From IMG/VR virus record IMGVR_UViG_3300025889_000070: 64,000 nt of DNA; one strand, given 5' to 3'. The stretch is from a virus (Duplodnaviria; Caudoviricetes). Of this stretch, positions 1-19,240 are shown piece by piece; the first letter of the stretch is position 1, and each line of letters starts with the position of its first letter. A program made the position numbers and the translations under genes. The notes under the pieces were generated by a model, which was not told where the DNA came from, did no database searches, and worked only from the letters and a program-made list of their open reading frames with translations.

Positions 1-1
1 A

Positions 2-835
2 GATGACTGGTTTGATAATGTATGCTTGCCTATTGTAAATGAAACAAGTGGATGGGCATTTGGTGGTGTACAAAAAACAAACCTCAACCACAGCCTAAGA
101 AGGTTGCTATATCTCAAAGAACTTGGATTGCTACAAAAAGCAGAATGGATTCACTTCTTGGGCACAGGTAGACTTGACCAGGGTGTAATGTATACTGCTA
201 TGCAACGGGCTATCAGAAAGTCTATAAATCCGTTCCTTACAATAAGCATGGATTGTGCAAGTCCATTTATTGCTACAGCAAACGGCCAAGTGTATACTGA
301 CAATACATTTAACAACAAGCGTATTGGCTACAACATGGTACACATGGTAGACGAAAAGGATCCCGCAAACAAAGAAGCACCCTGGCCCTGGGACGACTCA
401 CCTATTGGCGCCAGACTTACCTGGCGTGATGTTAACTGGTATGATCCAGGTGACTTAAACAAGATTGGTAAAGAAGGCAAAACCAGTTGGGATAGTTTTG
501 CATACTGTTTGATGATGGGACATAACATCTACAAGCATATTGATTCAGTACAAATGGCTAACCGTCTAATGGCAAGGCCAATTGGTATGAATGAATGGAT
601 ACCAGACCAATATTTGCAATTCCAGGATCTATGTGTAGACTTGTTTGCTAGAGATTATAACAAGAGCATGGCTGCTATTGATGCAGAACTTGACAAGCAT
701 GAAGGTTTGATTAGTAAACTAAGCCGTATTAAAAATCTTAAAAACACAAACGCATTTGAGAGTTTGTTTAGTTTTGATGTTCCAACAACCAACACTGATA
801 TAGACAGTAGCCAGGAAGAGGACGATGCCCGATGA
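2..835 (+). CDS. TGT/DpdA-like guanine transglycosylase (5' partial; frame open to window start)
   Basis: GWAFGG, IHFLGTG, SMDCASPFIATANGQVY and MGHNIY align in order with Tgt motifs GYAVGG, YLMGVG, FDCVMPTRNARNGHLF and IHNL. The catalytic Asp is kept. Lies next to folE; queD/queE are downstream. Confidence 0.75.
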   Translation, partial: DDWFDNVCLPIVNETSGWAFGGVQKTNLNHSLRRLLYLKELGLLQKAEWIHFLGTGRLDQGVMYTAMQRAIRKSINPFLTISMDCASPFIATANGQVYTDNTFNNKRIGYNMVHMVDEKDPANKEAPWPWDDSPIGARLTWRDVNWYDPGDLNKIGKEGKTSWDSFAYCLMMGHNIYKHIDSVQMANRLMARPIGMNEWIPDQYLQFQDLCVDLFARDYNKSMAAIDAELDKHEGLISKLSRIKNLKNTNAFESLFSFDVPTTNTDIDSSQEEDDAR

Positions 836-1908
836 ACACCATTTATATTATATGTCTGGAGCCTATTGATCAGAGATATACTAAACAGTGGTTTACAAAC
901 ATTCCCAGTATACTGGAACAGCGTATCCAGGAACAGGGCTTAGATTATCGTGTAGTTACTATTGAAGGTGACACAGTGCCTGATAATACTACAGCAGGTG
1001 CGTTTTTGGACTTTGGTGCTACAAACGTCTACAAAGCAAGCCAGACTGTAACTGTTAGCAAGATGTTTAGTCAGGGAGACATCAAGCCTGGTGATAAGTT
1101 TTTAGTTACAGATGCCTGGAACTTTATTATTACACCTATCAAATACATGAGTGACCTGCTGGACATTCCAGTAGAAATACACAGCATCTGGCATGCTGGG
1201 GCATATGATCCCAGTGACATCCTGGGTTACAAAATGAACAAGCCATGGCCCTGGGATGCTGAGCGTAGTTGGTTTTATAGCAGTGACTATAACTACTATG
1301 CCAGTGAAAATCATCGTAAAATGTTTTTAACTAACTTAAACATACCAGAAGAATATCATCACAAAGCAGTGCGAAGTGGCCAGCCACACGAATTGATAAT
1401 CGATGATCTTGTTAGGCATCAGAATACAGACAAACAAGATCGTGTTATGTGGCCACATCGTTACAATGCTGACAAGCAACCAGCGATCGCAGAAGATCTT
1501 GCTGCCAACTTTGACATGGTTATTACTCAGAAAATGAACTTGAACAAAGCAGATTACTATGCTACAATGGGCACAAGTAAACTTATTTTTAGTTGTGCAC
1601 TACATGAGAACCTTGGCATCAGTGTCATGGAAGCAGTGCTAACTGGAGCAGTTCCAGTGGTGCCGGATCGTTGTAGTTACAGTGAAATGTATTTAGATGA
1701 ATTTAAATATCCCAGTGAGTGGACAGAGGATCTGGAAAGTTATCAGAAAAATAAACACAGGGTAGCAGAGTTTATTCAGGATAAACTGGATAACTACTCT
1801 AATTATCATAATCTTATTCGTGAGCAACAGAGTATTCTCGTACGAGATTATTTAAGCAGCAATATTATGATGGACAAATTATTAGAAAAAAAGGAACTTA
1901 GTGCATGA
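832..1908 (+). CDS. GT-B glycosyltransferase, GTDC1/QTMAN (DUF3524)-like
   Basis: Retaining GT-B signature HENLGISVME (E-x7-E). WPHRYNADKQP resembles the WPHRWEHDKDP motif I recall for GTDC1/QTMAN. ATGA overlap with the upstream gene. Confidence 0.85.
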   Translation: MNTIYIICLEPIDQRYTKQWFTNIPSILEQRIQEQGLDYRVVTIEGDTVPDNTTAGAFLDFGATNVYKASQTVTVSKMFSQGDIKPGDKFLVTDAWNFIITPIKYMSDLLDIPVEIHSIWHAGAYDPSDILGYKMNKPWPWDAERSWFYSSDYNYYASENHRKMFLTNLNIPEEYHHKAVRSGQPHELIIDDLVRHQNTDKQDRVMWPHRYNADKQPAIAEDLAANFDMVITQKMNLNKADYYATMGTSKLIFSCALHENLGISVMEAVLTGAVPVVPDRCSYSEMYLDEFKYPSEWTEDLESYQKNKHRVAEFIQDKLDNYSNYHNLIREQQSILVRDYLSSNIMMDKLLEKKELSA

Positions 1909-2594
1909 GAAATACTTCCGAACAAATTATAGAACGTATAAAACAGTCCAATGGCCGTTACTGGGCTGGAGATAATATTAGTGAATATCTAGGGCCAGGT
2001 GACAAAGAAGCACTTATTGAAGAACTTACTGTTAAGTTTGAAAGTGTACTGGATAGTTTGGTGATCGATCGTCACACTGATCCAAACAGTCAGGATACTG
2101 GCAGACGTTTGGCCAAGATGTACATTCGAGAGATAATGAGTGGTCGTTACAATCCTAAACCTAACGCAACAGCATTTCCTAATCATACAAATGAGCGATA
2201 TGATGGTATGCTAGTCGTGCGTAGTGAACTTAAAAGTATGTGTTCACACCACCATCAACCAGTCACTGGTGTAGCATACATTGGAATTATTGCTGCTGAT
2301 ACTCTCATTGGTTTAAGTAAATATACACGAATAGCACAATGGTGTGCTCGCCGTGGAACTCTACAAGAAGAACTTGCCATGGATATTGCCCGAGAAATTC
2401 AGGCAGCAACTGGCAGTAATGATGTTGGCGTATATATTCAGGCTACACATGGTTGTTGTGAAAATCGCGGCATAGGTGCTCATAGTAGCCTAACACAAAC
2501 TACAGTTTTGCGTGGCAGTTTCCACAATGATCCTGCTTGCAAGAAAGAGTTTATGGATAACATTAAACTACAACAAGGATTTGCTCCAAGATGA
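1905..2594 (+). CDS. folE: GTP cyclohydrolase I
   Basis: SMCSHHHQP, GLSKYTRIA, LQEELA, HGCCENRG and TTVLRGSF motifs. Confidence 0.97.
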   Translation: MRNTSEQIIERIKQSNGRYWAGDNISEYLGPGDKEALIEELTVKFESVLDSLVIDRHTDPNSQDTGRRLAKMYIREIMSGRYNPKPNATAFPNHTNERYDGMLVVRSELKSMCSHHHQPVTGVAYIGIIAADTLIGLSKYTRIAQWCARRGTLQEELAMDIAREIQAATGSNDVGVYIQATHGCCENRGIGAHSSLTQTTVLRGSFHNDPACKKEFMDNIKLQQGFAPR

Positions 2595-3301
2595 TACTGT
2601 TATTTGATGTAGACGGTACTCTTACTCCGAGCAGGGGAGAAATGAATCTTGAGTTTGCTAATAAGTTTCTCAAGTTAAAAAACTTTAGTTTAGTCACTGG
2701 CAGTGACTGGCCAAAAACAGTGGAACAAGTTGGCACAAAAATATTTGAAGATGCTGATTATTCATTTAATTGTAGCGGCAATGATGTTTACAGCAAAGGA
2801 AAACACATAGCCAAAAATAACTGGAAACCCGGCACAGACTTACTGGATTACCTTAGCAAGTGTTTAGGGGAATCTAGTTATCCTGAAAAATATGGTAACC
2901 ATATTGAAATACGAACTGGAATGCTTAACTTTAGTATAGTAGGAAGAAATGCTATAGGTAAGCAAAGAACAGATTATTATAACTGGGACGTTCAAATGCT
3001 GGAACGTGACAGAATATGCAGAGGAATCAAATATCATTTTCCAGAACTTTGTGCTGAAGTTGGTGGTGAAACTGGTGTTGACATTTATCCAGTTGGTAAT
3101 GATAAATCCCAGTGCTTAAAATATTTTGGTGGTCGACCAATACATTTTTTTGGTGATTCTTGTCACGCCGGCGGGAATGATTATAGCATAGCAAGTATAC
3201 TGGAATCTAGATCAGATTGTAAAGTATATCATGTCAATGATTGGAAGGAAACATGGCAGATCCTAAACCAAAAATATATGAATCACCTGATGGTGGATTA
3301 A
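2591..3301 (+). CDS. pmm: Phosphomannomutase, eukaryote-type HAD IIB
   Basis: LFDVDGTLTPSR, VTGSD, IEIRTGMLNFSIVGR and HFFGD..GGNDY, characteristic of the PMM1/PMM2/Sec53 family. Confidence 0.9.
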   Translation: MILLFDVDGTLTPSRGEMNLEFANKFLKLKNFSLVTGSDWPKTVEQVGTKIFEDADYSFNCSGNDVYSKGKHIAKNNWKPGTDLLDYLSKCLGESSYPEKYGNHIEIRTGMLNFSIVGRNAIGKQRTDYYNWDVQMLERDRICRGIKYHFPELCAEVGGETGVDIYPVGNDKSQCLKYFGGRPIHFFGDSCHAGGNDYSIASILESRSDCKVYHVNDWKETWQILNQKYMNHLMVD

Positions 3302-3585
3302 CTGTATACGCCAGAGATTTTGGTGCTCCAACGGATAGTAGAGTCGAGATTACCATGCCTGATAATCTTTACTATGACGAATTGTCTGGCTGGGAAGTTA
3401 AAATAAGTGATAATCGTTCTAACGGTTATATAGAGTATGACGCCATCAAAGAAGCAATAAAAAGTAACAGTACATTTGTAGATGTTGAATTACACAACAA
3501 ATATCCTGAACTCAGGGAAGCCTGGGAAGAATACAAAAAATTACAGGATCAATATAGTATGTGGCAACATATAGCACAAAAATAA
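3253..3585 (+). CDS. Hypothetical phage protein (IYESPDGG motif)
   Basis: ORF with GGAAGGA SD before the ATG at 3253. Confidence 0.75.
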   Translation: MADPKPKIYESPDGGLTVYARDFGAPTDSRVEITMPDNLYYDELSGWEVKISDNRSNGYIEYDAIKEAIKSNSTFVDVELHNKYPELREAWEEYKKLQDQYSMWQHIAQK

Positions 3586-3588
3586 TCC

Positions 3589-3623
3589 AAAACGGTTGAC
3601 GTTCGACAACCTCATGCTATCAT
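3589..3623 (+). promoter_or_regulatory. Sigma70-like early promoter of the subtilase gene
   Basis: AAAACGG-TTGACG, 16-nt spacer, TGc-TATCAT; same pattern as promoters at 15285 and 19629. Confidence 0.75.
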
Positions 3624-3664
3624 AATATTATGCAATGGTGCATATTTGATAAATGAGGTAAAAA

Positions 3665-6600
3665 ATGAACAAAGCATATATTGGTGCTTTGCTTGCTTCA
3701 ACTGCTCTGCTCAGTGCTTGTGTTCCTGGAAGTGGAACTCTAAGCTCTGCTGCAAGTACTGTAAAGTCTGCGTTTAACGCTAACAACGCTTTTGCTGTTA
3801 TTAGTGGGCAAATCTCAGAACTTGAAAATGTAGTTGCGGTGGCGCAAAGCAGCGCAAGCCTAAGCGCATTGGTCAATCCAACTAATGAAGACAGGACCAA
3901 TGCTGCCAACGTCGTTAGCAAGATTGATGCTGTTATCCGTGGCTGGGAAGATCATAAAGCCAACATGGATCCTAATCTACTTGCCGTTAAACTTAGTACA
4001 GCAGAATGGCGGCAAGCAGAAGCTGTTGTAAAACTACTCAAGGATGATCTCCGTCCCGTAGTTGACCGTGTAGTTCAGGGCGGCAACTATGATACCAAAG
4101 ACTTTGAATTCCTCGCAAAGAAGGAATCACTTGAACAAAAGATTAATGAAAAGAAGGCTGCCATTTTTGAAGCAGCCCAGCCCACTGTTATTAGCGCAAC
4201 TACCAGTGCAGTAACAGTAAACACTGGAGCGTCGTCCATGTCTCCTGAACGTGTCAAAAGCACTGAAGTTGTAGACGGTACACAAACGGTAACAGGTGGT
4301 AGTAGCATAAGCGATCTAACTCGTACAGCAACCTGGACCAGGACAACTACTCTGAGCATGGAGTATGATCGTACCTGGACTGTTGATGTACAGGATGTTA
4401 CTACAACTGTTTTCAGTAATGGTACTACATCTGAATCTCGTGGTACAGTTCGCAGCATTACAAACACTCAGACGTTTGATGCTCAACCACAGGTTAGCAG
4501 CCAGGAGATGACGCAAAACATTGGTTATACTGTTACAGAGCAGAATACACCAACTGTTAGTGTTACTAATGGAGAACCCACTGTTGTTGCTGAACACGTA
4601 GATAGGGTTGAACAAACAACTCAGGAAAATGGAAGTATTTTACATACTACTATTAGGACTACTACAACTACTACTACCACTCCTGTGACAACTACTACAA
4701 CTTATCCAAAAATTAGTGTCTACAACTATGAAGATGGACACTCTTTTACACACGATGCTACTGATGAAGTTTTGAGTAGCACAGTGGATGATGTTGTTGT
4801 TGCTACCAGTGAGGCTGTCGTAGAAACTATTACTGAGCATGTTGTAACAACAGAAACTACTACTAATGAAGTTGTTACACAGGTTACAGAAGGTAATCCA
4901 GTATTTGTTACTACACACGAAGATGTTACTACTACAAATACTGTAAACGGCGTAACTACTACTACAGTTACTCGTAACTATACTACAACTGCTACAGTGA
5001 CAACTACTACCACGACAAGTACTACCCCTGTAACTGTTAAAGTGTGGACAGACGGTAAACAAGAAACTATTCGTGGCGAAACTGTTGTAACAACGGAAAC
5101 CAGTGAAAGTGTAGTAACTGACCAGTGGGCAAAAGTAATGGAACAAACCACTACTGATGCTGTTGCGGAAGAAACTACAGAGTCAGCAGGAAGTGTTAAT
5201 CTTGCTGACCTAGGAACCCCAACGCCTGGAATGAGCAGCAATCCAGCAGACTTTAAGACCAATGAGTTTACCCTTGGTGCTACTGGTGGCTGGACTGACA
5301 ACAAAAGCATTATCAAGGCTGATGTTGCTTATAGTCGTGGTTGGACTGGTAAAGGTAGTTTGATTACCATTGCTGACACTGGCTATAATACCACGCACAC
5401 TGACTTAGAAGCAAAACACACTTTTAATACTATCACCGGTGATTCGACTAACATGGAAGATAATGTTGGACACGGATCACATGTTATGGGTATTGCAGCT
5501 GGCCGTAGAAACGGAACTGGTATGCATGGTGTAGCATTTGATGCTGATGTTGCTGTAGTTAAAGTAACAGATACCACAGGTTACAGTTTCGCTCGTGCTA
5601 GAACTGGCGCGACTTGGGCTGCTAACCTAGGCAGTGTTGCTTACAACGTAAGTGCTAACTATAGCTCAGACAGTGCTTTGCGTAGCAGTATTGTAGCAAC
5701 AGGTGATGGCACCTATAAGTCCACGCACTATTACTACGGTGTTAATGGCTATAATGGTGTACTACAAGAAGCCCAATTATGGAAAACCGCACTGGGTACT
5801 GAACAGATCCTAGTAAACAGTGCCGGCAACCAGACCAGCGATGTTGTATTTGGAACAGGACAAATGGCAACTGCTACAGAAAATGGTCAGCTTATCCTAG
5901 GCGGACGAATGCTGGTAGTTGGCAACTGGGACCAGAATAACAACGTTGTTCAGGGTGCAAAAGCTGGTCATCTTTGTACCACATACGATGAAGCAGCAGC
6001 AACTTGTAAAGACGCTGCTAGCATGCGGGACTTTTACATTCTTGCTCCAGGCATGAGTGTTAAGAGTGCTAACAAAGGAGATCCAAACGCTATCGTAGAC
6101 ATGAGTGGTACTAGTATGGCAGCACCACAGGTTACTGGCGCACTTGCTATTCTTAACCAAATGTGGCCACACATGAAAGGTGAAAACCTTGTCAAGTTGG
6201 TAACTACTACTGCCAGCAAGGACTTGCCTGGATACAATCCAGGTGTACACGGCAGCGGTTTGCTGGATTTGGATCGTGCTACACAGCCTGTAGGTGCTAC
6301 TGGTATCCCAACAAGTGGTCGTACCAGTGGCGCTATCGCAAGCCTGAGCACACTAAGCGGTGGTGCCCTAGTTGGCTCAATTAGCAGTGAAGCATTTGCT
6401 CCGCTTGCAAATGTTATGGTACTAGACAGCTTTGAGCGTGATTACACTATTGACCTTAGTGAAGCACAAAAGGTTGATACACGCCCAGGTAGCTATGTAG
6501 AATCTCTAGCATTTGGCAACGGCGACTACGACGCTTATGGAAACCTTGCCAGCAGTAATGCTAATCTTGCACTACCAAACATGCTAGGCTATACTGGTAA

Positions 6601-7231
6601 TATTAAAATCAACGAGAACGCAACTGGCGACTATGCATTTAGTGTTGGTTACAATCTTGTTGATGATAAGGATACCAAAGTAGATTTTGGTTTGGGCTTT
6701 GTCAAAGAAACAGGTAAGTTTCTTAACAACGTTCAGCAGGGCTTCATGGGAGTTGGTGAAAATCACACCACAAACTATGCCAGCCTAAAGATTAAACACA
6801 ACTTCAATGATACAGTGTTTGGGTTTGGTAATCTCCAGCTGGGTATGACAGATGTTGAATCCAGCAAGGATTTTAGCCTAGTTACAGGATACAGCAATCT
6901 AGTAAGTCGCAGTTTTGCTGTAGGCGCTGGGGTAAAGCCTGCTCAAGGCTGGAAACTCGGGGCTACATATAGTCAGCCACTAAATATCATGAGTGGCAAA
7001 ATGAACTACAAAGTTCCTGTAGCCAGAACCTTGGATGGTCAAGTTCAGTTTAATGAAGGAAGTGCTGATGCAAGCACAAAAGTTATTGAACATGACCTGG
7101 GTCTTTTTGTACAATATAAGATGGATGAAAACTTTAGCTTTGCTGGCTATGGTGAACACAGAATAAACGTTGCCGGTACAAAAGGAAACAGCCAGACTAA
7201 CGTAGGTGTAAAATTTAACTGGCAGTTCTAA
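3665..7231 (+). CDS. Lipoprotein S8 subtilase with Thr/Val-rich stalk and C-terminal beta-barrel-like domain
   Basis: Lipobox LLSAC; catalytic IADTG, HGSHVMG, NSAGN and GTSMAAP; ends with alternating residues and a terminal Phe (VGVKFNWQF). Confidence 0.9.
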   Translation: MNKAYIGALLASTALLSACVPGSGTLSSAASTVKSAFNANNAFAVISGQISELENVVAVAQSSASLSALVNPTNEDRTNAANVVSKIDAVIRGWEDHKANMDPNLLAVKLSTAEWRQAEAVVKLLKDDLRPVVDRVVQGGNYDTKDFEFLAKKESLEQKINEKKAAIFEAAQPTVISATTSAVTVNTGASSMSPERVKSTEVVDGTQTVTGGSSISDLTRTATWTRTTTLSMEYDRTWTVDVQDVTTTVFSNGTTSESRGTVRSITNTQTFDAQPQVSSQEMTQNIGYTVTEQNTPTVSVTNGEPTVVAEHVDRVEQTTQENGSILHTTIRTTTTTTTTPVTTTTTYPKISVYNYEDGHSFTHDATDEVLSSTVDDVVVATSEAVVETITEHVVTTETTTNEVVTQVTEGNPVFVTTHEDVTTTNTVNGVTTTTVTRNYTTTATVTTTTTTSTTPVTVKVWTDGKQETIRGETVVTTETSESVVTDQWAKVMEQTTTDAVAEETTESAGSVNLADLGTPTPGMSSNPADFKTNEFTLGATGGWTDNKSIIKADVAYSRGWTGKGSLITIADTGYNTTHTDLEAKHTFNTITGDSTNMEDNVGHGSHVMGIAAGRRNGTGMHGVAFDADVAVVKVTDTTGYSFARARTGATWAANLGSVAYNVSANYSSDSALRSSIVATGDGTYKSTHYYYGVNGYNGVLQEAQLWKTALGTEQILVNSAGNQTSDVVFGTGQMATATENGQLILGGRMLVVGNWDQNNNVVQGAKAGHLCTTYDEAAATCKDAASMRDFYILAPGMSVKSANKGDPNAIVDMSGTSMAAPQVTGALAILNQMWPHMKGENLVKLVTTTASKDLPGYNPGVHGSGLLDLDRATQPVGATGIPTSGRTSGAIASLSTLSGGALVGSISSEAFAPLANVMVLDSFERDYTIDLSEAQKVDTRPGSYVESLAFGNGDYDAYGNLASSNANLALPNMLGYTGNIKINENATGDYAFSVGYNLVDDKDTKVDFGLGFVKETGKFLNNVQQGFMGVGENHTTNYASLKIKHNFNDTVFGFGNLQLGMTDVESSKDFSLVTGYSNLVSRSFAVGAGVKPAQGWKLGATYSQPLNIMSGKMNYKVPVARTLDGQVQFNEGSADASTKVIEHDLGLFVQYKMDENFSFAGYGEHRINVAGTKGNSQTNVGVKFNWQF

Positions 7232-7241
7232 GGAGGAAGAA

Positions 7242-7724
7242 ATGCAACTAGTGCAGATCACATTAGAAAACTATAAGAAACTTAAATTTAATATCGATGA
7301 TGATCCAGTACGGCCTGAGCTAACTTTAGACTTTAGACTAGCACCAGGGCGTGAGATTTGGGCACTAGTTGCAGATGACGAATACAAGGCGGCGGTCTGT
7401 GTGGCATACTGCAACGAAGTACCTATTACTGTAAAAGAACTTGATTATTACAGTCAAGCAGCGCATCAAGACGATCAACATGGTAATATTGCAATCGCAT
7501 ACACAGTTTGGACCAAGCAACCTGGTGCTGGAAGAAAACTAATATTGGACATGATAAAACTATTAGAACAACAACGTGTCCTGCGCCTAGTAACTCTAAG
7601 TCCAAAAACAGCAATGGCGAGAAAATTCCATTTAAGAAATGGCGCCTTTATTTTTCAATTAAATACTGAGACAGACAACTATGAATATAAACTTTATCAA
7701 GAACAGGAAACGAGTAATACTTGA
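7242..7724 (+). CDS. Hypothetical protein, possible GNAT-like fold
   Basis: YTVW..QPGAGRKLI and ARKFHLRNGA resemble GNAT acetyl-CoA-binding motifs; strong SD AAGGAGG. Confidence 0.55.
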   Translation: MQLVQITLENYKKLKFNIDDDPVRPELTLDFRLAPGREIWALVADDEYKAAVCVAYCNEVPITVKELDYYSQAAHQDDQHGNIAIAYTVWTKQPGAGRKLILDMIKLLEQQRVLRLVTLSPKTAMARKFHLRNGAFIFQLNTETDNYEYKLYQEQETSNT

Positions 7725-8124
7725 CAGACTGGGAAACAACCCTTATCTTGTTAGATACTACTTGTTCCTTAAAGATAGAAAATGGTTTCCATTCAATATT
7801 TTCCTACACAAGTTTCTAAGCAGTGACCCAGATGAACTACATGACCATCCCTGGCCCTACTTTACACTTATACTACGCGGCGGATACTGGGAAACAACAC
7901 CAAATGGCAGATTTTGGAGACAGCCTGGGCATTTTAGGTTTTGTAAACCAAAAGATTTACATCGCATTGAACTAGAGCCTGATATTACCGCCTGGACTCT
8001 TTTTATTCCTGGCCCAAAACTTAGAGAATGGGGTTTTATAGTAAACGGAAAGTGGATGCATAACGAGCAATATTTTGCTTGGAGAAAACAAAAGGTAAAA
8101 AATGAAAAAGTTGTATCTTTCTAA
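7681..8124 (+). CDS. Cupin-like protein
   Basis: LHDHPWPYFTLILRGGYWE and LHRIEL metal-binding cupin pattern. Confidence 0.7.
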   Translation: MNINFIKNRKRVILDRLGNNPYLVRYYLFLKDRKWFPFNIFLHKFLSSDPDELHDHPWPYFTLILRGGYWETTPNGRFWRQPGHFRFCKPKDLHRIELEPDITAWTLFIPGPKLREWGFIVNGKWMHNEQYFAWRKQKVKNEKVVSF

Positions 8125-8635
8125 TAAACAGATTAAAAAAAGCATACACGATATTGTTTCACAAATGTATGCTGATAACTGGCGACCTGACTACATTGTA
8201 GGTATTACTCGTGGCGGTCTTGTCCCCGCTGTTCTTATGAGCCATCTAACAGGTATTAAGATGCATACCCTTGATGTTAGATTACGTGATGCCGCTGGCG
8301 AAAATGAATCCAACTACTGGATGGCAGAGGATGCTTTTGGCAACCATAGAACTGATGATCTACCAAGTTATAGCAATCCGCATCTTAGGAAAAATATTTT
8401 AATCTTGGATGATATCAATGATAGCGGAGCAACTCTTGAATGGATCAAAAACGATTGGCCCAGCGGATGCTTGCCAAATGATCCTGCTTGGAATGATGTT
8501 TGGCACAATAATGTTCGTTTCGCGACCATTGTAAATAATCTATCAAGTCCCTTTGAAGTTGATTATTCCTGTATCGAAATAAACAAAGCGGAAGAAGATG
8601 TTTGGGTAGTTTTTCCCTATGAGGAATGGTGGTAA
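8102..8635 (+). CDS. Type I phosphoribosyltransferase (purine PRT-like)
   Basis: VGITRGGLVPA, PRPP loop LILDDINDSGATL, and WVVFPYE C-terminus. Confidence 0.9.
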   Translation: MKKLYLSNKQIKKSIHDIVSQMYADNWRPDYIVGITRGGLVPAVLMSHLTGIKMHTLDVRLRDAAGENESNYWMAEDAFGNHRTDDLPSYSNPHLRKNILILDDINDSGATLEWIKNDWPSGCLPNDPAWNDVWHNNVRFATIVNNLSSPFEVDYSCIEINKAEEDVWVVFPYEEWW

Positions 8636-9204
8636 TGCTGTTTACAGAATACAAAAATTGGATATCTGATAAGGAACACATTGATATTTTAAGTAAAATT
8701 GTATACGCACCAAAGTGGCGTTTTGGCCAAGTAAGTGATGATCAAATTGAACCAAACTATCCAATGTGGTTCCAGGGATTTTATCACGTGCACAAACATG
8801 AATTTAAGGACGATTGTCCTGATATTGCTAAAACTTTAACGGAACGGTTTTTGGACCTAGCACCCGACAACTATATGTTGGTTAGAAGCATGGCTAGTAG
8901 TAATACGTTTGGTCAGGACGGAGACTTTCACACAGATTGGCCAGTATTTGGGCAAAGCATTACTGGTGTACTTTATACTGATAAAGTATGGGAAACAAAC
9001 TGGGGCGGTGAAACCTTGTTTAAAGGAGATCAGGTTTTAGAAGCAAGTGAGTATGAGCCTTGTAAACTTGTTACTTTTGATAGTAGCATTCCGCACATTG
9101 GTAAAGGTCCCCAACGTAGGTGCAAGGAAATGCGTAGCATACTAGCATTCCAAGCAGTGGAAGCCGATGCTCTCAGAGAAAGAATGAATAAAAAACTTGA
9201 CTAA
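8635..9204 (+). CDS. 2OG-Fe(II) oxygenase (prolyl-hydroxylase-like)
   Basis: HTD triad, WGGETLF, distal His (PHIG) and R-S (MRSIL); TAATG coupling to the PRTase. Confidence 0.85.
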   Translation: MLFTEYKNWISDKEHIDILSKIVYAPKWRFGQVSDDQIEPNYPMWFQGFYHVHKHEFKDDCPDIAKTLTERFLDLAPDNYMLVRSMASSNTFGQDGDFHTDWPVFGQSITGVLYTDKVWETNWGGETLFKGDQVLEASEYEPCKLVTFDSSIPHIGKGPQRRCKEMRSILAFQAVEADALRERMNKKLD

Positions 9205-9225
9205 ATAGAAAGTACTTGTTATTAT
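9197..9225 (+). promoter_or_regulatory. Sigma70-like promoter of the queD operon
   Basis: TTGACT (9197-9202), 17 nt, TGt-TATTAT (9220-9225); predicted start site near 9231-9232. Confidence 0.7.
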
Positions 9226-9231
9226 AATAAT

Positions 9232-9290
9232 AAGAGGACTTAGTGTTCGTTCCCTCTTTAAATATTCCGCGCACTCCATAACCAAGGAGT
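9232..9290 (+). ncRNA. Candidate cis-regulatory RNA, preQ1-I-like pseudoknot with an SD-sequestering hairpin
   Basis: P1 AAGAGG/CCUCUU; loop AGUGU can pair with downstream GCACU; competing ACUCC/GGAGU hairpin covers the SD; directly upstream of queD. Confidence 0.5.
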
Positions 9291-9297
9291 ATAAATT

Positions 9298-9777
9298 ATG
9301 GCAAAATATATTAGTACTAAAACATATAGACACTTAGGTCCAGTAGCATACAGGCAGTGGAGAGCAGACAGTCATTGTAATTTAATTCATGGATACGCAT
9401 TAAGTTTCCATTTTGAATTTGAATGCGACACACTGGATGCTAGAAACTGGTGCATGGACTTTGGTGGTTTGAAGCCACTAAAACAAAACCTAGAAGATTG
9501 GTTTGATCATACGCTATTAGTAGCACAAGACGATCCAGACCGAGAAACATTGTTAGATCTTGGTAAAAAAGGATTAGCAAAGATCACAGAAGTTGAAAAA
9601 ACTGGCTGCGAGGGTCTAGCAGACTTCCTTTATGAATACGTAAATACTATTTTCTTACCCAACTATGGCAAAGCAGAAGCAGAACGTATCTGGTGCTGTA
9701 AAGTTGAGGTAAGGGAAACCGACTCAAATATGGCTATGCGTGTCGGGCATAGAGAAGATGGAGAATTCGATGTTTAA
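9298..9777 (+). CDS. queD: 6-carboxy-5,6,7,8-tetrahydropterin synthase
   Basis: HCNLIHGY, DFGGLK, FDHTLLV, CEGLA and VEVRET motifs. Confidence 0.93.
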   Translation: MAKYISTKTYRHLGPVAYRQWRADSHCNLIHGYALSFHFEFECDTLDARNWCMDFGGLKPLKQNLEDWFDHTLLVAQDDPDRETLLDLGKKGLAKITEVEKTGCEGLADFLYEYVNTIFLPNYGKAEAERIWCCKVEVRETDSNMAMRVGHREDGEFDV

Positions 9778-9985
9778 AACTTTTTGGAACTTTATTTCTG
9801 GTTTAGGCAGTGTTGAAGACATTGTAAAGACAGCTACAGTAACAGAAGCAGAACTTAAAAAGATGACCAAAAAAGAAATTGATGACTGGGCTGCTAGTTC
9901 AGGCGTTACACTTGATCGTCGTCTTACAAAAGATAAGATGATTGCTGAACTTAAAACACACACATCTAAAGTTAACATTACATAA
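9770..9985 (+). CDS. Small protein with Rho-N/HeH-like helical motif
   Basis: LKKMTKKEIDDWAASSGVTLDRRLTKDKMIAEL; GGAG SD before the ATG at 9770. Confidence 0.6.
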   Translation: MFKTFWNFISGLGSVEDIVKTATVTEAELKKMTKKEIDDWAASSGVTLDRRLTKDKMIAELKTHTSKVNIT

Positions 9986-9994
9986 GAGGCATTA

Positions 9995-10876
9995 ATGAAA
10001 ATAAGATACACTGAAGCGTTTTATAGTGTACAAGGCGAAGGAAGGTTTGTTGGAGTTCCCAGCGTTTTCTTGCGTATGTACGGTTGTAATTTTACATGTC
10101 CAAAGTTTGGGCTAGCAAGGGATGCAGATACAAGTCAGACTGATAAAAAGTTAGCGGACATTGTTTACGAAACAACCAAGGTGTTTCCTGAAAAATATGA
10201 TAGTGTAGATAAACTCCCACTTATTGAAACAGGCTGTGACAGTTATGCCGCTTGGCATCCTGCTTTTAAACATCTACAGAATGACGTAGACTTGGACACA
10301 CTTGTAGATAGACTGCTAGCACTAACACCCACTGGATCATGGACACAGGAAAATGGTCAAGACATACACTTGGTTATCACAGGTGGTGAACCTTTGTTGG
10401 GTTGGCAGCGTGTGTATACAGAACTATTTGAACATCCAAAAATGAAGGATCTTAAAAATGTCACTTTTGAAACTAACACCACACAGCCTTTGCAGGACAA
10501 TTTCCAGTCTTACCTCAACAATAACCAACAACTACATGTTACATGGTCATGTTCCCCGAAGCTATCGGTTAGTGGACATGCTTGGGATGATGCTATACAG
10601 CCTAGTATTGCTAGGAGTTACAGTGACATTCGTGATAGCTACCTATATTTCAAGTTTGTTGTATGTGATGATGTTGATGTGGAAGAAGTTGACCGAGCTG
10701 TGGCGGAATTTAGAGCTGCCGGTATTACTGCGCCGGTTTATGTCATGGCTGTCGGAGGTACAACAACAAGTTACTTTGCTAACGGCAAAACTGTGGCGGA
10801 ACTTGCTCTTAAAAAAGGCTATTGTTATTCGCCCAGGCTTCATGTCGACGTTTTTGGCAATGCCTGGGGAACGTAA
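9995..10876 (+). CDS. queE: 7-carboxy-7-deazaguanine synthase (radical SAM)
   Basis: FYSVQGEG..G.PSVFLR..GCNFTC, ITGGEPLL, FETN, SCSPKL and PRLHVD. Confidence 0.93.
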   Translation: MKIRYTEAFYSVQGEGRFVGVPSVFLRMYGCNFTCPKFGLARDADTSQTDKKLADIVYETTKVFPEKYDSVDKLPLIETGCDSYAAWHPAFKHLQNDVDLDTLVDRLLALTPTGSWTQENGQDIHLVITGGEPLLGWQRVYTELFEHPKMKDLKNVTFETNTTQPLQDNFQSYLNNNQQLHVTWSCSPKLSVSGHAWDDAIQPSIARSYSDIRDSYLYFKFVVCDDVDVEEVDRAVAEFRAAGITAPVYVMAVGGTTTSYFANGKTVAELALKKGYCYSPRLHVDVFGNAWGT

Positions 10877-10889
10877 TAAATCCACTGGT

Positions 10890-10970
10890 ATGCCTGTAAT
10901 AGAAAAACAAAAACAAGAAAAACTAGTCCCAAAAGATTTAGAACAGAGACTTAGAGAATCAGGATTATGA
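10890..10970 (+). CDS. Possible 26-aa peptide (MPVIEKQKQEKLVPKDLEQRLRESGL)
   Basis: Fills the gap between queE and the phosphatase gene and overlaps the latter by ATGA; no clear SD. Confidence 0.35.
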   Translation: MPVIEKQKQEKLVPKDLEQRLRESGL

Positions 10971-11530
10971 AATCAGTTTGGGTAAGACACGGTCAAAGCG
11001 AATACAATGCTCAAAACTTGAGCACTGGTTGGCACGATCCTGATCTTACAGAACAGGGAGTGATAGAAGCGCATCAAGCAGGTGTTGTGCTTGCTGAAAG
11101 ATACACAAGCGTTGCTGGCGTATATGCTAGTGACCTACGTCGTAGTTTTAATACTGCTAATATTATAGTAGAAACCACTGGTTGGAATATTACCCCACAG
11201 GTTAGTCCTGCTATAAGAGAACGTGATTATGGCGATTGGAGTGGTAAAAATAAAGATCAGATCAAGCAGGAACTGGGGGAAGATAAATTCTTACAAATAC
11301 GCAGAGGTTGGCAGGCCAGCCCAGTTAACGGCGAAAGTTTAAAAGATACTGCTGCAAGAGTTTATGGTTTTTTACGCGAAATAGAAGACAGAGCAAATGA
11401 ACTACCACATATTATTATTTGTCATGGTAATACAATCAGGGCGGCCGCAGTAGTGCTGGGAAAAAGAACACAAGAAGACGTACATGAGTTTGAAGTACAC
11501 ACAGGAGAAGTAATTGAATGGGACTTTTAG
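10967..11530 (+). CDS. Histidine phosphatase / dPGM-like protein
   Basis: VRHGQSEYN, ASDLRRS, ERDYG and ICHGNTIRA motifs. Confidence 0.9.
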   Translation: MKSVWVRHGQSEYNAQNLSTGWHDPDLTEQGVIEAHQAGVVLAERYTSVAGVYASDLRRSFNTANIIVETTGWNITPQVSPAIRERDYGDWSGKNKDQIKQELGEDKFLQIRRGWQASPVNGESLKDTAARVYGFLREIEDRANELPHIIICHGNTIRAAAVVLGKRTQEDVHEFEVHTGEVIEWDF

Positions 11531-11886
11531 ATGATGCAAAACGTGCTATGGGCCTGGGGAAAGCAAAAGTAGTAGAAGAGCCAAAACCTAGAGCGCCTAA
11601 AAAAACAGCAAAAGAAATTGCTACAGAAAAGGGAGAGCCCTGGGTAAGTGTGCTCGATATAGAACTGGATCCTGAAAATCCTGGAAACGGTGCTTTTGAA
11701 CTTGACTGGAACGAATATTTTATAAAGCGTCTTTGGAAGGCTGGCTACCGTGACGAAGATGAAAATGACATGGTAGATCGTTGGTTCCAGGATGTTTGTA
11801 GACAGGTAGTTCTTGAAACATATGAAAAAGATGAAGCAATGGTAACCAGAAATGATCTAGGTGATGGAAAGACAGAGTATAGATAA
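11518..11886 (+). CDS. Hypothetical phage protein
   Basis: ORF coupled to both neighbours. Confidence 0.75.
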   Translation: MGLLDDAKRAMGLGKAKVVEEPKPRAPKKTAKEIATEKGEPWVSVLDIELDPENPGNGAFELDWNEYFIKRLWKAGYRDEDENDMVDRWFQDVCRQVVLETYEKDEAMVTRNDLGDGKTEYR

Positions 11887-12656
11887 TGTTGCTATACGTA
11901 AATGGTGATAGTCATAGTGCTGGAGCAGAACTTGTTAAAGACTATTGCTTTGCAGAAGACGACAACCGATATCGTCATTATGGCAGAACTCCTCACCCTG
12001 AAGCAATACCAAAAACATTTGGACATCATTTGTCTAAAAAACTTAACGCTGGCTACTTTTTAGACGCTGAGAGTGCAAGTAGTAATGATCGTATCCTCCG
12101 GACAACTCAGTTATTCCTAGGTGAGAAAATACGCAAACCGCGTACAATAGTTATTGGTTGGAGTTCCTGGGAGAGAGAAGAGTTTTGGCATACTGATAGA
12201 TATTATCAGTTTACAGCAAGTGGAACTGATAGTGTTCCTGAAGAATTAGAACTTGATTATAAAATCTGGGTTGCAGAACAAACTAATGATACACTAAGAA
12301 TAAAGCACATATACTGGCACAATAAAATCTGGGATTTTCACCAGGAACTTGTGGAGAAAAACGTTAAACATTTATTCTTTAATGCCATGCAAAATTTTAA
12401 TCCAGGCTGGGTAGAAAGCAAGGACTGGCAGGGAAGTTATATAGAGCCATATGATAATAACTGGGTATACATAAACTGGGCTAAACAACAAGGCTTCCTA
12501 ACAGCAAACTTCTTTGGCAGTCATTATGGCGAGGACGCTCATAAAGCCTGGGCAAGAGAACTTCATACACGGTTGACAGGACCAGTAGAATCTAGTACAA
12601 TAAACACTAGAGTAGTAAATGCAAGAGTAAACCCTTACAAACCGAGGAAGTTGTGA
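11886..12656 (+). CDS. Hypothetical protein, SGNH-hydrolase-like
   Basis: N-terminal NGDSHSAG, ASSNDRI and C-terminal HYGEDAH. Confidence 0.55.
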   Translation: MLLYVNGDSHSAGAELVKDYCFAEDDNRYRHYGRTPHPEAIPKTFGHHLSKKLNAGYFLDAESASSNDRILRTTQLFLGEKIRKPRTIVIGWSSWEREEFWHTDRYYQFTASGTDSVPEELELDYKIWVAEQTNDTLRIKHIYWHNKIWDFHQELVEKNVKHLFFNAMQNFNPGWVESKDWQGSYIEPYDNNWVYINWAKQQGFLTANFFGSHYGEDAHKAWARELHTRLTGPVESSTINTRVVNARVNPYKPRKL

Positions 12657-15629: not shown

Positions 15630-16739
15630 ATGTCAGAAGCAGTTGATGCCCGCACAGTTACGCTAGCAGAAGCAGAACAGCGTATTGTTCGTGCTTTCCG
15701 CAAAAAGCGTCCTGTGTTTTTGTGGGGCTTGCCGGGTGTTGGCAAGAGTGAGCTCATGGAGCGCATTGCCAACAAGGCTTACCTGGGCAATACATACCTG
15801 GTAGATGTTCGTGTGGCGCTCATGGAGCCCACGGACCTGCGTGGTATGCCGTTTTACAATCGTGAGACAGGCAAGATGGAATGGGCGCCGCCTGTAGATT
15901 TGCCGGATGAGGCTCTTGCTAGCCAGTACGATACTGTTATCTTGTTCTTGGACGAGATGAACAGTGCTGCTCCGGCTGTCCAGGCCGCTGCCTACCAATT
16001 GGTGCTCAATCGCCGTATTGGTCAGTTTAAGTTGCCTGACAACGTGGTTATTGTTGCTGCTGGCAACCGCGAAAGTGACAAGGGTGTTACTTATCGTATG
16101 CCCACGCCGCTTGCTAACCGTTTCGTCCACCTTGAAGTTCGTGTGGACTTTGACAGTTGGTTTGACTGGGCTGTGGAGAACAAAATCCATGAAGATGTGG
16201 TTGGCTATGTCAGTTTTGCCAAGGCTGACTTATGCAACTTTGATCCCCGTTCCAGCGGACGTTCGTTTGCTACCCCGCGTAGTTGGACGTTTGTTAGCCA
16301 GTTCCTGGACGACGATGCCAGTGATATGGAGTTAACTGACTTAATCAGCGGTTGCATTGGCGAAGGTACTGCTCTTAAGTTCATGGCCCATCGCAAGATT
16401 GCCAAGGACATGCCAGAGCCTACTGCTATCCTGGCCGGCAAGGTCAAAGAGCTCAAGGTCAAAGAGATCAGCGCCCAGTATGCTCTTACTGTTGGTATGT
16501 GCTATGAGCTCAAGGATGCCTACGACAAGTTCGGCAAAAAGGACACCAAGAAATGGCACGAAATGGCAGACAACTTCTTCCGCTTTACCATGGACAATTT
16601 CCCTACTGAGATGGTTGTTATGGGGGCACGTATGGCGATTACCAACTATAACTTGCCCTTCCAGCCCAACAAGCTCAGCAACTTCAAGGAATTCTTTGAT
16701 CGGTTTGGCAAATATGTTGTCAAGGCCATGGAGGACTAA
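15630..16739 (+). CDS. MoxR-like AAA+ ATPase
   Basis: Walker A GLPGVGKS, DLRGMP, Walker B LFLDEMN, AAGNRESD and PLANRF. Confidence 0.92.
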   Translation: MSEAVDARTVTLAEAEQRIVRAFRKKRPVFLWGLPGVGKSELMERIANKAYLGNTYLVDVRVALMEPTDLRGMPFYNRETGKMEWAPPVDLPDEALASQYDTVILFLDEMNSAAPAVQAAAYQLVLNRRIGQFKLPDNVVIVAAGNRESDKGVTYRMPTPLANRFVHLEVRVDFDSWFDWAVENKIHEDVVGYVSFAKADLCNFDPRSSGRSFATPRSWTFVSQFLDDDASDMELTDLISGCIGEGTALKFMAHRKIAKDMPEPTAILAGKVKELKVKEISAQYALTVGMCYELKDAYDKFGKKDTKKWHEMADNFFRFTMDNFPTEMVVMGARMAITNYNLPFQPNKLSNFKEFFDRFGKYVVKAMED

Positions 16740-16913
16740 ATGAAAGGTTTAAAACTTATAATTGCTGTTGTTGTTCTCGTAGTGGTTGGTGTTAGTGGAT
16801 GGCATTTAACACGCTGGTTTAACTATGAATTTGGATACAATGCTAAAATTGAGCAAACCGTGTGTCACATGGTTAAACCAGCAGCACTTATTAACCCTAG
16901 CAAATGTAAATAG
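16740..16913 (+). CDS. 57-aa single-pass membrane or secreted protein (absent from the ORF track)
   Basis: MKGLKLIIAVVVLVVVGVSGW...SKCK; GGAGG SD; starts immediately after the ATPase stop. Confidence 0.75.
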   Translation: MKGLKLIIAVVVLVVVGVSGWHLTRWFNYEFGYNAKIEQTVCHMVKPAALINPSKCK

Positions 16914-16923
16914 GAAAAATTAT

Positions 16924-17127
16924 ATGAAAGCAACTATTGTTGCGTTGATAATGACTACTGTGCTGGCAGGATGCACTTTTAAAACAGTTAAAAAGTGCAC
17001 CCTGGGTTGCGGCGAGTTTGTGCTGGTAACGAGAGACGGCGTTACTTACGCCAGAACTGTAGACAAACAAACGCTGAACGTTCCTCCTTATATTAATGAC
17101 AGACCGGAGAAAAACAATGAAAAATAG
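16924..17127 (+). CDS. Small predicted lipoprotein
   Basis: MKATIVALIMTTVLAGC with lipobox LAGC. Confidence 0.7.
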   Translation: MKATIVALIMTTVLAGCTFKTVKKCTLGCGEFVLVTRDGVTYARTVDKQTLNVPPYINDRPEKNNEK

Positions 17128-17395
17128 TTTAACACTTGCTGAAGACTTTGATCTATGGTGGAAGATGCGGAAATACCAAACTAGAGATATTCCAGCCAGG
17201 GAGTTTGGTGACCAAACTGTTGTAATGCGTCATGGCAGTAACTCAGGTTGGCCTGGTGAAGAGAAAGACGTAGAGTACTGGGTAGAACTTAAGAATGGCA
17301 TGGCTGTTGGTTTCCGACATGGGCGTAGTTCAACTGGAGTCCGTCGTGCAAAATATGCTGAATTTCCAGTAGTAAAATTGTTGACAACAGGTTAA
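17117..17395 (+). CDS. Hypothetical protein
   Basis: GGAG SD before the ATG at 17117. Confidence 0.7.
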   Translation: MKNSLTLAEDFDLWWKMRKYQTRDIPAREFGDQTVVMRHGSNSGWPGEEKDVEYWVELKNGMAVGFRHGRSSTGVRRAKYAEFPVVKLLTTG

Positions 17396-17409
17396 CAATA
17401 TACTATAAT
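17381..17409 (+). promoter_or_regulatory. Consensus sigma70 promoter
   Basis: TTGACA, 17 nt, TATAAT. Confidence 0.85.
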
Positions 17410-17499
17410 AATAGAGTAAGTTGATACCCAACTTATATGGTCCTTACCAAGGACTTTTAATAAACCGCTCGTTTTAGAGCATAAAAAGGAAACACTAAA

Positions 17500-18768
17500 A
17501 TGAAAAAAGACACTATTGGTCTATTTGTAGATACATCGCGACCAAAAGCAGAGTTAACAGACACTGCTTATTCTGTCATGAGCTATGCTCAACAGGTTAA
17601 CGAGAAATTCAACACAAAAGAAGATACGATTGTAGAGCTGGCTACTCGGTTTGTCCAGGCTATCGTAGAAAAAGATCCTAACTTGCCTGATTTTCTTAGG
17701 GAATTAGCACAAGAATTTCGTAATCGTAATCCACAATACACAGAGTTTGCTGACATGTATGCTGATATGGTGCAGATGTCTGCAAACAAGAAGGAACGTG
17801 TTAAACTCAAGCAGATGCTTATTAACGCAACTATCCAGCGTGAAGTTGATCCTGAATGGGTTTTAAAAATCGTTGGAAAGTTTGATCCTTTCTTTGTTAA
17901 CATTATTCGCTTATATCCCGTGCTGAATGGAAAAGCTGAACAAAAATTGTTTGCTATCTGGGACGGTCAGCATACGACCCTTAGTTTGCTCTGCATTGCT
18001 ATGTACGCATTTGATATGAGCTTTGAGGACGCTATGGAACTTGAAGTACCAACGGCAATATATCCTGGCAGAGATGTTGCAAAGTTACGCAAACGGTTTA
18101 TTGGTGTACATGATGACACTATGAGCAAACGGTTGGACAAGATTGATTTGTATATGCAGTATGTATGGGCAGTACGAAACAATGGAGATACTGATCCCTG
18201 GAGCATGCGTTTTGAAGAAATCCAGTGCGCTCTAGAAGAGTTCAATTGCTTTTTTACGCATGACAAGTTTGGAGACACAGACAAGCCTGGTGCTGTATCA
18301 CGTCCTACAGAAATTTTTCCTAAAGGTCGTGATGTGACTAAGTGGAAGAGTAGTGTGCTACGGCGAGTTTTCCAGTATCACAATATGTACCTTGCAGATC
18401 AGCCCATTGAGCCTCTGGAAATTGACAATATGGCACATATTTTCCGTGCTTGCGATCTGCAGGCCATTGTTGTAGACGATGATTATGTGCGTGAATTTGG
18501 CAAGTACCTTGCCGCTGTTACAAAGAATACTTGGGCAAAGGGATATACTAATAAGCAACTTAAACACAAGTTAGTTTCTAGTGCCTACAAGAGTTGGTTT
18601 AATAGACAGGACTCGCGAGTCCGTATGACACTGAATAGCCGCTGTAATCAGACAGAAGTTGCTCCTACTTGGATCTGTCAGGCAATAGCCAAAGCAGGGT
18701 TTTCCAAAGACTTGCCGATCTTTACTGGTAGGTTTGCATATGATTTTGATGACAAGGAGTTAGGCTAA
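17500..18768 (+). CDS. ParB/Srx-like (DGQH-motif) domain protein
   Basis: QREVD...FDP...FAIWDGQHTTL resembles the ParB-like/DGQHR N-terminal domain. Confidence 0.55.
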   Translation: MKKDTIGLFVDTSRPKAELTDTAYSVMSYAQQVNEKFNTKEDTIVELATRFVQAIVEKDPNLPDFLRELAQEFRNRNPQYTEFADMYADMVQMSANKKERVKLKQMLINATIQREVDPEWVLKIVGKFDPFFVNIIRLYPVLNGKAEQKLFAIWDGQHTTLSLLCIAMYAFDMSFEDAMELEVPTAIYPGRDVAKLRKRFIGVHDDTMSKRLDKIDLYMQYVWAVRNNGDTDPWSMRFEEIQCALEEFNCFFTHDKFGDTDKPGAVSRPTEIFPKGRDVTKWKSSVLRRVFQYHNMYLADQPIEPLEIDNMAHIFRACDLQAIVVDDDYVREFGKYLAAVTKNTWAKGYTNKQLKHKLVSSAYKSWFNRQDSRVRMTLNSRCNQTEVAPTWICQAIAKAGFSKDLPIFTGRFAYDFDDKELG

Positions 18769-19208: not shown

Positions 19209-19210
19209 TA

Positions 19211-19238
19211 AAATAGCCCTAGAAATAGGGCTATTTTT
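19211..19238 (+). terminator. Intrinsic terminator (probably bidirectional)
   Basis: AAATAGCCCTA-GAAA-TAGGGCTATTT followed by TT. Confidence 0.88.
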
Positions 19239-19240
19239 GG

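Follow-up and report, generated by a model that had tools for sequence, protein, structure and literature searches.

The enzymes known to make 7-carboxy-7-deazaguanine (CDG) from GTP are FolE, QueD and QueE, and DpdL has been proposed, without proof, to be the CDG decarboxylase (PMC10516641). The eight deazaguanine derivatives described in DNA are all sugar-free, and no word beginning with 'glycosyl' can be found in the main text of that study (PMC10516641). With dpdA and dpdL of Acidovorax phage ACP17 alone in Escherichia coli, no 2'-deoxy-7-deazaguanosine (dDG) was obtained, and the authors suggest that further enzymes may be needed (PMC10516641). The DNA of Pseudomonas phage PA5oct is reported to carry a modified G of undetermined structure; it withstands enzymes whose sites contain G, and the phage is restricted by modified-G sensors (PMC12191111). 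For a 7-deazapurine base without a side-chain hydroxyl, the only demonstrated glycosylation chemistry is the N2-glycosylation by HuiG (PMC7439116). The locus considered here belongs to the phage record IMGVR_UViG_3300025889_000070 of IMG/VR, of which a stretch of 64,000 nucleotides (the window) was analysed. It joins a gene for a DpdA-like transglycosylase, with the fold of tRNA-guanine transglycosylase (TGT), to genes for a glycosyltransferase (GT), FolE and a phosphomannomutase (PMM). It is read as a sugar-tailored version of the QueC-less, DpdL-type DNA modification, and a glycosylated deazaguanine is predicted in the DNA with a probability of roughly 0.55.

The window belongs to a contig, at most about 220 kb long, from a large marine phage, and a virion structural protein of 4524 aa, found downstream together with tail-fibre-like genes, identifies the source as a large tailed phage. 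No cultured phage matches positions 1-12000 of the window by DNA megablast. A metagenome contig of the same genome (L023) extends 10 kb further upstream, and a relative (P0003) is 97-99% identical. Four open reading frames (ORFs) on the + strand are found at positions 2-3301, the first of which is open at its 5' end at the window edge. They are listed here with four further genes of the module:

2..835, + strand: DpdA-like (TGT-fold) transglycosylase, C-terminal 277 aa of 487 aa (fold match, invariant Asp motifs)
832..1908, + strand: retaining GT-B (GT4-type) glycosyltransferase, translationally coupled to dpdA and folE (fold, EX7E)
1905..2594, + strand: GTP cyclohydrolase I (FolE), first step to CDG (PF01227, E 1.6e-39; phrog_2197, E 2.8e-45)
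2591..3301, + strand: eukaryotic-type phosphomannomutase (HAD-IIB), lineage-specific sugar supply (PF03332, E 1.7e-32)
7681..8124, + strand: small cupin, PHROG label 'cysteine dioxygenase' (phrog_4786, E 9.6e-38)
8102..8635, + strand: purine (xanthine/guanine-type) phosphoribosyltransferase, PRTase (PF00156, E 1.2e-12; NF006613 XPRT, E 3.3e-9)
9298..9777, + strand: QueD-like 6-carboxytetrahydropterin synthase (PF01242, E 6.6e-16; phrog_2389, E 1.9e-40)
9995..10876, + strand: QueE-like radical SAM (S-adenosylmethionine) 7-carboxy-7-deazaguanine synthase (phrog_2076, E 1e-50)

Start and stop codons overlap as ATGA at all three junctions of the first four genes (CGATGAAC at 832, GCATGAGA at 1905 and AGATGATA at 2591), and the coupling of these genes, already claimed in a first-pass annotation made from the sequence, is thereby confirmed from the ORF coordinates and the junction letters. 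Its assignments of the TGT-like, GT-B, FolE, PMM, QueD and QueE proteins are likewise borne out by Pfam, PHROG or fold matches. The catalytic Cys is kept in the QueD-like protein (motif CNLIHGY), and the NCBIfam QueE models cover only the N-terminus of the QueE-like protein (E 1e-9 to 1e-10). The genes upstream, read from L023 in the same direction, encode DpdL, a short-chain dehydrogenase/reductase (SDR) epimerase/dehydratase, a nucleoside diphosphate (NDP)-sugar 6-dehydrogenase, a 175-aa cupin and a 201-aa DegT-like protein, after which dpdA-GT-folE-PMM follow; dpdA and the GT gene thus lie inside a sugar-nucleotide operon.

GT relatives were drawn from IMG/VR, where a first scan gave 19 loci and a profile scan at least 593 stretches, with the best 80 retained, and three cultured phage groups and three metagenome contigs were added; a word-index protein search gave 983 GT homologs. 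Hidden Markov models (HMMs) of the window proteins were then searched, with one round of iteration, against every ORF in these loci. The GTs were collapsed at 90% identity into 73 clusters, and the 46 flanked by 6 kb or more on each side are the loci counted throughout. The deazaguanine genes can be found in nearly all of them, namely DpdA-like and DpdL in 44 of the 46 each, QueE in 43/46 and FolE in 42/46. The flap endonuclease of the replication block (31/46) and the purine PRTase (30/46) come next, followed by a nucleotidyltransferase-cupin (17/46), a small cupin located typically directly before the PRTase, between FolE and PRTase (12/46), a GFO plus Zn-alcohol dehydrogenase (Zn-ADH) pair (12/46), an NDP-sugar dehydrogenase (11/46) and PMM (2/46). 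The recurrence of the purine PRTase and the small cupin in the module had gone unremarked in the first-pass annotation. The commonest order is DpdA-DpdL-GT-FolE-(cupin)-PRT-QueE, and dozens of permutations can be found in which the set is retained. Identity of the GT to the window protein ranges from 90% down to about 24%, the hosts include Alpha-, Beta- and Gammaproteobacteria, and the same block is present in Sinorhizobium phage Phosso, in Acidovorax phage ACP17 and in PA5oct-like Pseudomonas jumbo phages, the GT being ASD50404 in ACP17 and EST35_0317 in PA5oct. Of the proposed tgt-GT-folE-pmm synteny, the tgt-GT-folE part is thus kept (42-44 of 46 loci, three unrelated cultured groups) and pmm, at 2/46, is not. 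The GT very probably belongs functionally to the deazaguanine module. DpdL phages devoid of this GT are the phiST group, RHph_I1_18, Ahp1, Bakedbeans, D479, BUCT-ZZ01 and MA9V-3, and the GT is distributed as one would predict for an enzyme that performs an optional tailoring step on top of the DpdL/DpdA pathway. A protein named u173, about 130-185 aa long and unmatched in Pfam, is also present in 20 of the 46 representative loci, usually just before DpdL or GT (e.g., L095:8793-9311, L015:7448-8005 and L021:6323-6721, the last in ACP17, directly before dpdA); it is absent from the examined part of the window's genome.

DpdL is encoded in the same genome at L023:4327-4785, 4 kb upstream of the window, and displays the motif LxxxHRHxF (VSFLGYPHRHIFHF). 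It is a T-fold paralog of QueD in which LxxxHRHxF replaces CxxxHGH, and its homologs adjoin the GT in ACP17, PA5oct and Phosso. A 122-aa ORF at 11518-11886, considered as DpdL, was rejected for having no HRH motif. A search for QueC was negative in three complete genomes, those of Phosso, ACP17 and PA5oct, and in two long viral contigs, and no PP-loop motif was found in the 74 kb examined of this genome. Since QueC was not found and DpdL is present, the base should be of the CDG or 7-deazaguanine (DG) type and not preQ0 or preQ1. Judging from gene content, the pathway appears to be the QueC-less, DpdL-type one of Cellulophaga phage phiST and Campylobacter phages. The deazaguanine pathway put forward in the first-pass annotation stands as regards FolE, QueD, QueE and a DpdA-like enzyme, with the base now expected to be CDG or DG.

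The product of the first ORF (2-835) has no Pfam, NCBIfam or PHROG match, and sequence profiles of this protein and of the GT against PDB sequences gave noise only, the fold comparison being the informative one. The full-length DpdA-like protein, of 487 aa, was obtained from L023:8541-10004 and from the relative P0003 (L001), and an AlphaFold model was built on 40 homologs, with a predicted local distance difference test (pLDDT) score of 87. All top 50 Foldseek matches of this model are Zymomonas mobilis TGT (E about 1e-8). The Z scores given by VIA-align are 19.2 for ArcTGT, 18.6 for QTRT2, 17.9 for bacterial TGT, 16.2 for the DNA preQ0 insertase DpdA (7ui4) and 14.0 for Cap10, and unrelated TIM barrels reach at most 11.6, which leaves the TGT superfamily alone at the top. 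D104 (in DSGGFQ, 104-109) and D294 (in DCASP, 294-298) are invariant in the 40 homologs; we take them to be the general acid/base Asp and the nucleophile Asp, corresponding to D102 and D280 of Z. mobilis TGT, respectively. The motif of D294, MDCASPF, falls in the C-terminal part encoded in the window. The Zn-site CxCxxC...H of bacterial tRNA TGTs is not among the conserved columns of these homologs, C295 being their sole conserved Cys. Remote matches were obtained by hhalign to the DpdA of ACP17 (ASD50403; probability 79%, E 1.6e-5) and to DpdA3 of phiST (gp042; probability 59%, E 9e-5), and an iterated HMM of the family reaches the ACP17 DpdA at 3e-7. By its modelled fold, the protein is placed in the TGT/DpdA superfamily.

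The GT model (pLDDT 90) exhibits a two-Rossmann GT-B fold to which GT4 members are closest, the structural matches by Foldseek and VIA-align being SPS, BshA, glycogen synthase, PglA, GlgM, PimB' and LmbT (Z 20-25). The EX7E motif reads E259-NLGISVM-E267, and both Glu are invariant in 40 homologs. PF00534 gives 15.9 bits for the window GT, under the gathering cut-off of 26.4, and it is matched at E<=1 by 39 of the 40 family members (best E 1.2e-5). From the model and these motifs, the GT looks catalytically intact as a retaining GT4 enzyme. The label 'QTMAN-like', which it had received in the first-pass annotation, reflects only generic GT4 similarity. None of the 40 family members matches the QTMAN_N domain (PF12038) at E<=1. 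Drosophila QTMAN ranks 12 in a search of the Swiss-Prot part of the AlphaFold database (E 1.1e-9), tied with dozens of GT4 enzymes, and has the highest identity to the GT of the top 30 structural matches, 16%. The protein-language-model neighbours of the GT are virus-specific GT clusters and generic Glycos_transf_1 families, with no QTMAN family among the named clusters. A QTMAN-specific signature was consequently dropped, and family membership does not stand; a functional analogy to QTMAN, with a sugar placed on a deazaguanine in nucleic acid, may be retained.

The ORF at 2591-3301 is, by sequence, unambiguously a member of the eukaryotic-type PMM family: PF03332 scores 113.5 bits against a cut-off of 22.4 (E 1.7e-32), phmmer against solved PMM structures gives 5ue7 at E 3.3e-37 over residues 2-228, and the nucleophile motif FDVDGTLTP aligns to the DxDxT phospho-acceptor. 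Among the GT loci, only those of this genome and of its closest relatives have PMM. Other PMM homologs of cultured phages are those of the cyanophages S-SSM7, S-SSM6a and P-TIM68, plus a weak match in an Acinetobacter phage, and the PMM-bearing cyanophages were recovered in none of the GT, DpdL or DpdA-like searches. Mannose, proposed as the sugar in the first-pass annotation, is therefore not established: PMM, with its 2 of 46 loci, does not travel with the module, and other lineages have different sugar genes, which makes mannose a lineage-specific guess. Beside dpdA, this genome encodes an SDR epimerase/dehydratase, an NDP-sugar 6-dehydrogenase and a DegT-like protein, sugar genes lie on either side of dpdA-GT, and the combination suggests a sugar more elaborate than plain mannose. 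At least one carbohydrate-type gene adjoins the GT in 30 of the 46 representative loci. Genes by the GT in other lineages encode an RfaE-domain-II-like nucleotidyltransferase fused to a cupin resembling the phosphomannose isomerase (PMI) domain of GDP-mannose pyrophosphorylase/PMI (GMP/PMI), a class I fructose-bisphosphate aldolase, the deazaguanine-precursor transporter YhhQ, a GFO/IDH/MocA oxidoreductase with Zn-ADH, and an NDP-sugar dehydrogenase. The PMI-like cupin of the relatives and the PMM found here lie on one route from fructose-6-phosphate to NDP-mannose, which lends some comparative support to a manno-sugar. The cupin at 7681-8124, o7242 and the upstream 175-aa cupin were tried as split homologs of the nucleotidyltransferase-PMI-cupin fusion and showed no BLASTP similarity. 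The donors of GT4 enzymes are not readable from sequence. The sugar is here likely a modified hexose (uronic or amino, from a manno- or gluco-precursor) and not necessarily plain mannose, which is itself an unlikely choice.

In the mechanism proposed for this locus, FolE, QueD and QueE would make CDG from GTP, the DpdA-like enzyme would remove G from the phage DNA and insert CDG, DG or a derivative of these, and the GT would move a sugar from an NDP-sugar to the base, either once the base is in the DNA or while it is still free. The donor would be supplied or remodelled by lineage genes, here those for PMM, the NDP-sugar 6-dehydrogenase, the SDR epimerase/dehydratase, the DegT-like protein and the cupin, and the sugar-bearing base would shield G-containing sites from restriction. 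Candidate acceptor atoms would be the exocyclic N2, as in huimycin and dapiramicin, the C7 carboxylate of CDG and C7 of DG; a CDG carboxyl ester or a C7 C-glycoside as the linkage is speculative. The first-pass annotation had left the target as DNA or, alternatively, tRNA. DNA is indirectly favored, as a homologous DpdA-GT-DpdL block is present in PA5oct, which has a modified G in its DNA (PMC12191111). In ACP17 the GT gene lies between dpdA and dpdL, and the GT, perhaps also the adjacent u173-family ORF, is an obvious candidate for the possibly missing ACP17 enzyme. Taken jointly, the claims that a sugar-bearing 7-deazaguanine replaces G, that its sugar is lineage-specific (here a PMM-fed, oxidised or aminated hexose), that the linkage is unprecedented in nucleic acids and that the GT is the enzyme missing in ACP17 are given an even chance. 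In the overall interpretation of the first-pass annotation, the link of the GT to deazaguanine is strong (42-44 of 46 loci), and mannose and kinship to QTMAN are weak.

Several observations weigh against a glycosylated deazaguanine in DNA. DG and CDG have no ordinary hydroxyl acceptor, so that the chemistry is not obvious, and the purine PRTase, being frequent, may reflect a branch at the nucleotide level for which the proposed model has no explanation. The absence of the GT from phiST, for which plain dDG was found by mass spectrometry, makes this enzyme an add-on and not a core step. No detectable sugar-supply gene is present in 16 of the 46 loci, including PA5oct, ACP17 and Phosso, i.e., all three cultured groups. 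The best structural matches of the GT are GT4 enzymes acting on small molecules or lipids, not on DNA, and the match to the T4 alpha-GT is lower (Z 17.9). The GT and the DpdA-like protein each have an acidic isoelectric point (pI about 5.1-5.6), which gives no support for DNA binding; since marine phage proteins are often acidic, this is uninformative, and net charge and pI were dropped as a hint. Full-text searches of Creative-Commons PMC papers and bioRxiv found no mass-spectrometric or chemical report of a sugar on deazaguanine in DNA; the statement of the first-pass annotation that no characterised sugar-modified deazaguanine is known from phage DNA agrees with these searches.

Alternatively, the GT could act on free 7-deazaguanine or on a nucleotide, the product being a small molecule or a compound of the nucleotide pool and not a DNA base. 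Such a product, similar to huimycin or dapiramicin or, via the PRTase, to a toyocamycin- or tubercidin-like nucleotide, might aid host takeover or block competitors. The purine PRTase of 30/46 loci points in this direction, as do the closest folds of the GT, the small-molecule GT4 enzymes BshA, MshA, LmbT and SenB, the glycosylation of N2 of a 7-deazapurine base by HuiG (PMC7439116) and the biosynthesis of tubercidin, reported to involve a PRTase and CDG (PMC6112128). However, the presence in 44 of the 46 loci of a TGT-fold enzyme with intact catalytic Asp, often coupled to the GT, implies insertion into nucleic acid, the DNA of PA5oct is itself modified at G (PMC12191111), and known deazapurine natural-product clusters have no dpdA (10.64898/2026.04.15.718813), and a free base or nucleotide is regarded as quite an unlikely substrate. 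With regard to FolE, a 6-pyruvoyltetrahydropterin synthase (PTPS) homolog and a GT, the set resembles cyanobacterial biopterin-glucoside synthesis, and UDP-glucose:tetrahydrobiopterin glucosyltransferase is among the tied structural matches (Z 20.5). The GT and the sugar genes could hence serve another acceptor, i.e., a pterin, a virion or host protein or lipopolysaccharide, and be merely co-located in an early/replication block. The PMM homologs of cyanophages absent from the GT, DpdL and DpdA-like searches would fit with this, as would the location of the module in the replication region (flap endonuclease in 31 of 46 loci). Mere co-location is nonetheless very unlikely, considering that the linkage to DpdA-like and DpdL (44/46) is tighter than that to any replication gene and survives rearrangements and differing phage backbones, and that no full-flank GT locus was found from which the entire deazaguanine set is missing.

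The TGT-like enzyme and the GT could also modify tRNA, in which case position 34 would hold a glycosylated, queuosine-like base made by the phage, comparable to eukaryotic mannosyl- and galactosyl-queuosine. While the TGT-like enzyme resembles tRNA TGTs (Z 17.9-19.2) in its fold no less than it does DpdA (Z 16.2), and QTMAN is among the GT4 structural matches, with the top identity of the best 30 (16%), the gene set comprises no QueC, QueF, QueA or QueG, so that queuosine cannot be made by it. Moreover, the 40 members of the GT family have no QTMAN_N domain, the Zn-site Cys motif of tRNA TGTs is not conserved in the DpdA-like family, G is modified in PA5oct at the DNA level (PMC12191111), and the DpdA3/DpdL phages tested to date (phiST and others) carry the base in DNA (PMC10516641). 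A role in tRNA is thus highly improbable, and a glycosylated deazaguanine in the phage DNA is preferred.

Other genes of this genome can be mentioned beside the module. Between PMM and the cupin-PRTase pair, the ORF at 3665-7231 (+) codes for 1188 aa, of which residues 562-852 form a subtilase (S8) domain, and S8 homologs are found in the equivalent position in 6/46 representative GT loci. A T4 endonuclease V (denV)-like pyrimidine-dimer glycosylase (phrog_274) lies at 8626-9204 (+), between the PRTase and QueD. At L023:1162-2888, some 2 kb ahead of DpdL, two neighbouring short radical SAM genes (280 and 295 aa) have weak viperin-, MoaA- and PapB-like matches, and no subfamily is assignable. 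On the - strand, the region 26532-37717 harbors a NodU/CmcH-type carbamoyltransferase (26532-28013) followed by six consecutive radical SAM genes, two with an N-terminal SPASM/'twitch' domain and one with a B12-binding domain; similar twitch radical SAM proteins are encoded in the relative L028, 2 kb downstream of GT/FolE. This block may be involved in sugar or base tailoring, or may be a separate auxiliary island. The region 15630-22859 (+) comprises a MoxR-like AAA ATPase (15630-16739), an HNH endonuclease (18768-19208), a DUF2201 metallopeptidase/von Willebrand factor A (VWA) protein (19683-20981) and a dCMP deaminase (20981-21622). The 4524-aa protein corresponds to a single ORF at 48408-61982 (-), a PHROG virion structural protein (phrog_10938), after which an ORF of more than 660 aa runs past the window end.

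To our knowledge, all known sugar-bearing DNA bases are pyrimidines, i.e., glucosyl- and arabinosyl-hydroxymethylcytosine, glycosylated 5-hydroxycytosine and base J. If true, the modification predicted here would give the first example, in any DNA, of a glycosylated purine analogue and would constitute a new class of DNA hypermodification. It would bear on the evasion of restriction and CRISPR, on sensing by type IV and END-type defence and on the sequencing and amplification of such genomes, and would add enzymatic tools for DNA labelling. The GT family is large (at least 593 IMG/VR stretches), and since the module is present in cultured phages, including the therapy-relevant PA5oct, the prediction is directly testable.

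Regarding known systems, the alpha- and beta-glucosyltransferases of T4 and the phage 5-hydroxymethylcytosine (5hmC) and 5-hydroxycytosine systems resemble this locus in having a phage GT-B enzyme; they add sugars, which vary between lineages, to an already modified base of replicated DNA. They differ in that their acceptor is a hydroxyl on a modified pyrimidine, whereas the partner pathway makes here a purine analogue, and the GT is nearer to the GT4 family than to the T4 alpha-glucosyltransferase (AGT; Z 17.9). HuiG, from the huimycin pathway of Kutzneria albida, is similar by context and, if the prediction holds, by chemistry, its gene lying beside homologs of FolE, QueD and QueE and the enzyme placing GlcNAc onto the exocyclic N2 of a 7-deazapurine (PMC7439116). 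However, huimycin is an actinomycete small molecule with a preQ0-derived aglycone, and its pathway has QueC and no DpdA. QTMAN (GTDC1), the eukaryotic tRNA-queuosine alpha-mannosyltransferase, is a retaining GT4-type GT-B enzyme that places a sugar onto a 7-deazaguanine derivative already in nucleic acid, but the sugar goes onto the cyclopentenediol hydroxyl of tRNA queuosine, a base that this phage could not make. The DpdL/DpdA3 pathway of phiST shares with the present one FolE, QueD and QueE with no QueC, the Cys-less QueD paralog DpdL with LxxxHRHxF, a divergent TGT-fold DpdA missed by Pfam and the location of the genes next to replication genes (PMC10516641). Unlike the genome examined here, phiST has no homolog of the GT, its DNA contains plain dDG, and its DpdA3 has 259 aa, as compared to 487 aa. 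Beyond the phiST set, the present module comprises a GT4 enzyme, sugar-nucleotide genes, a purine PRTase and a cupin.

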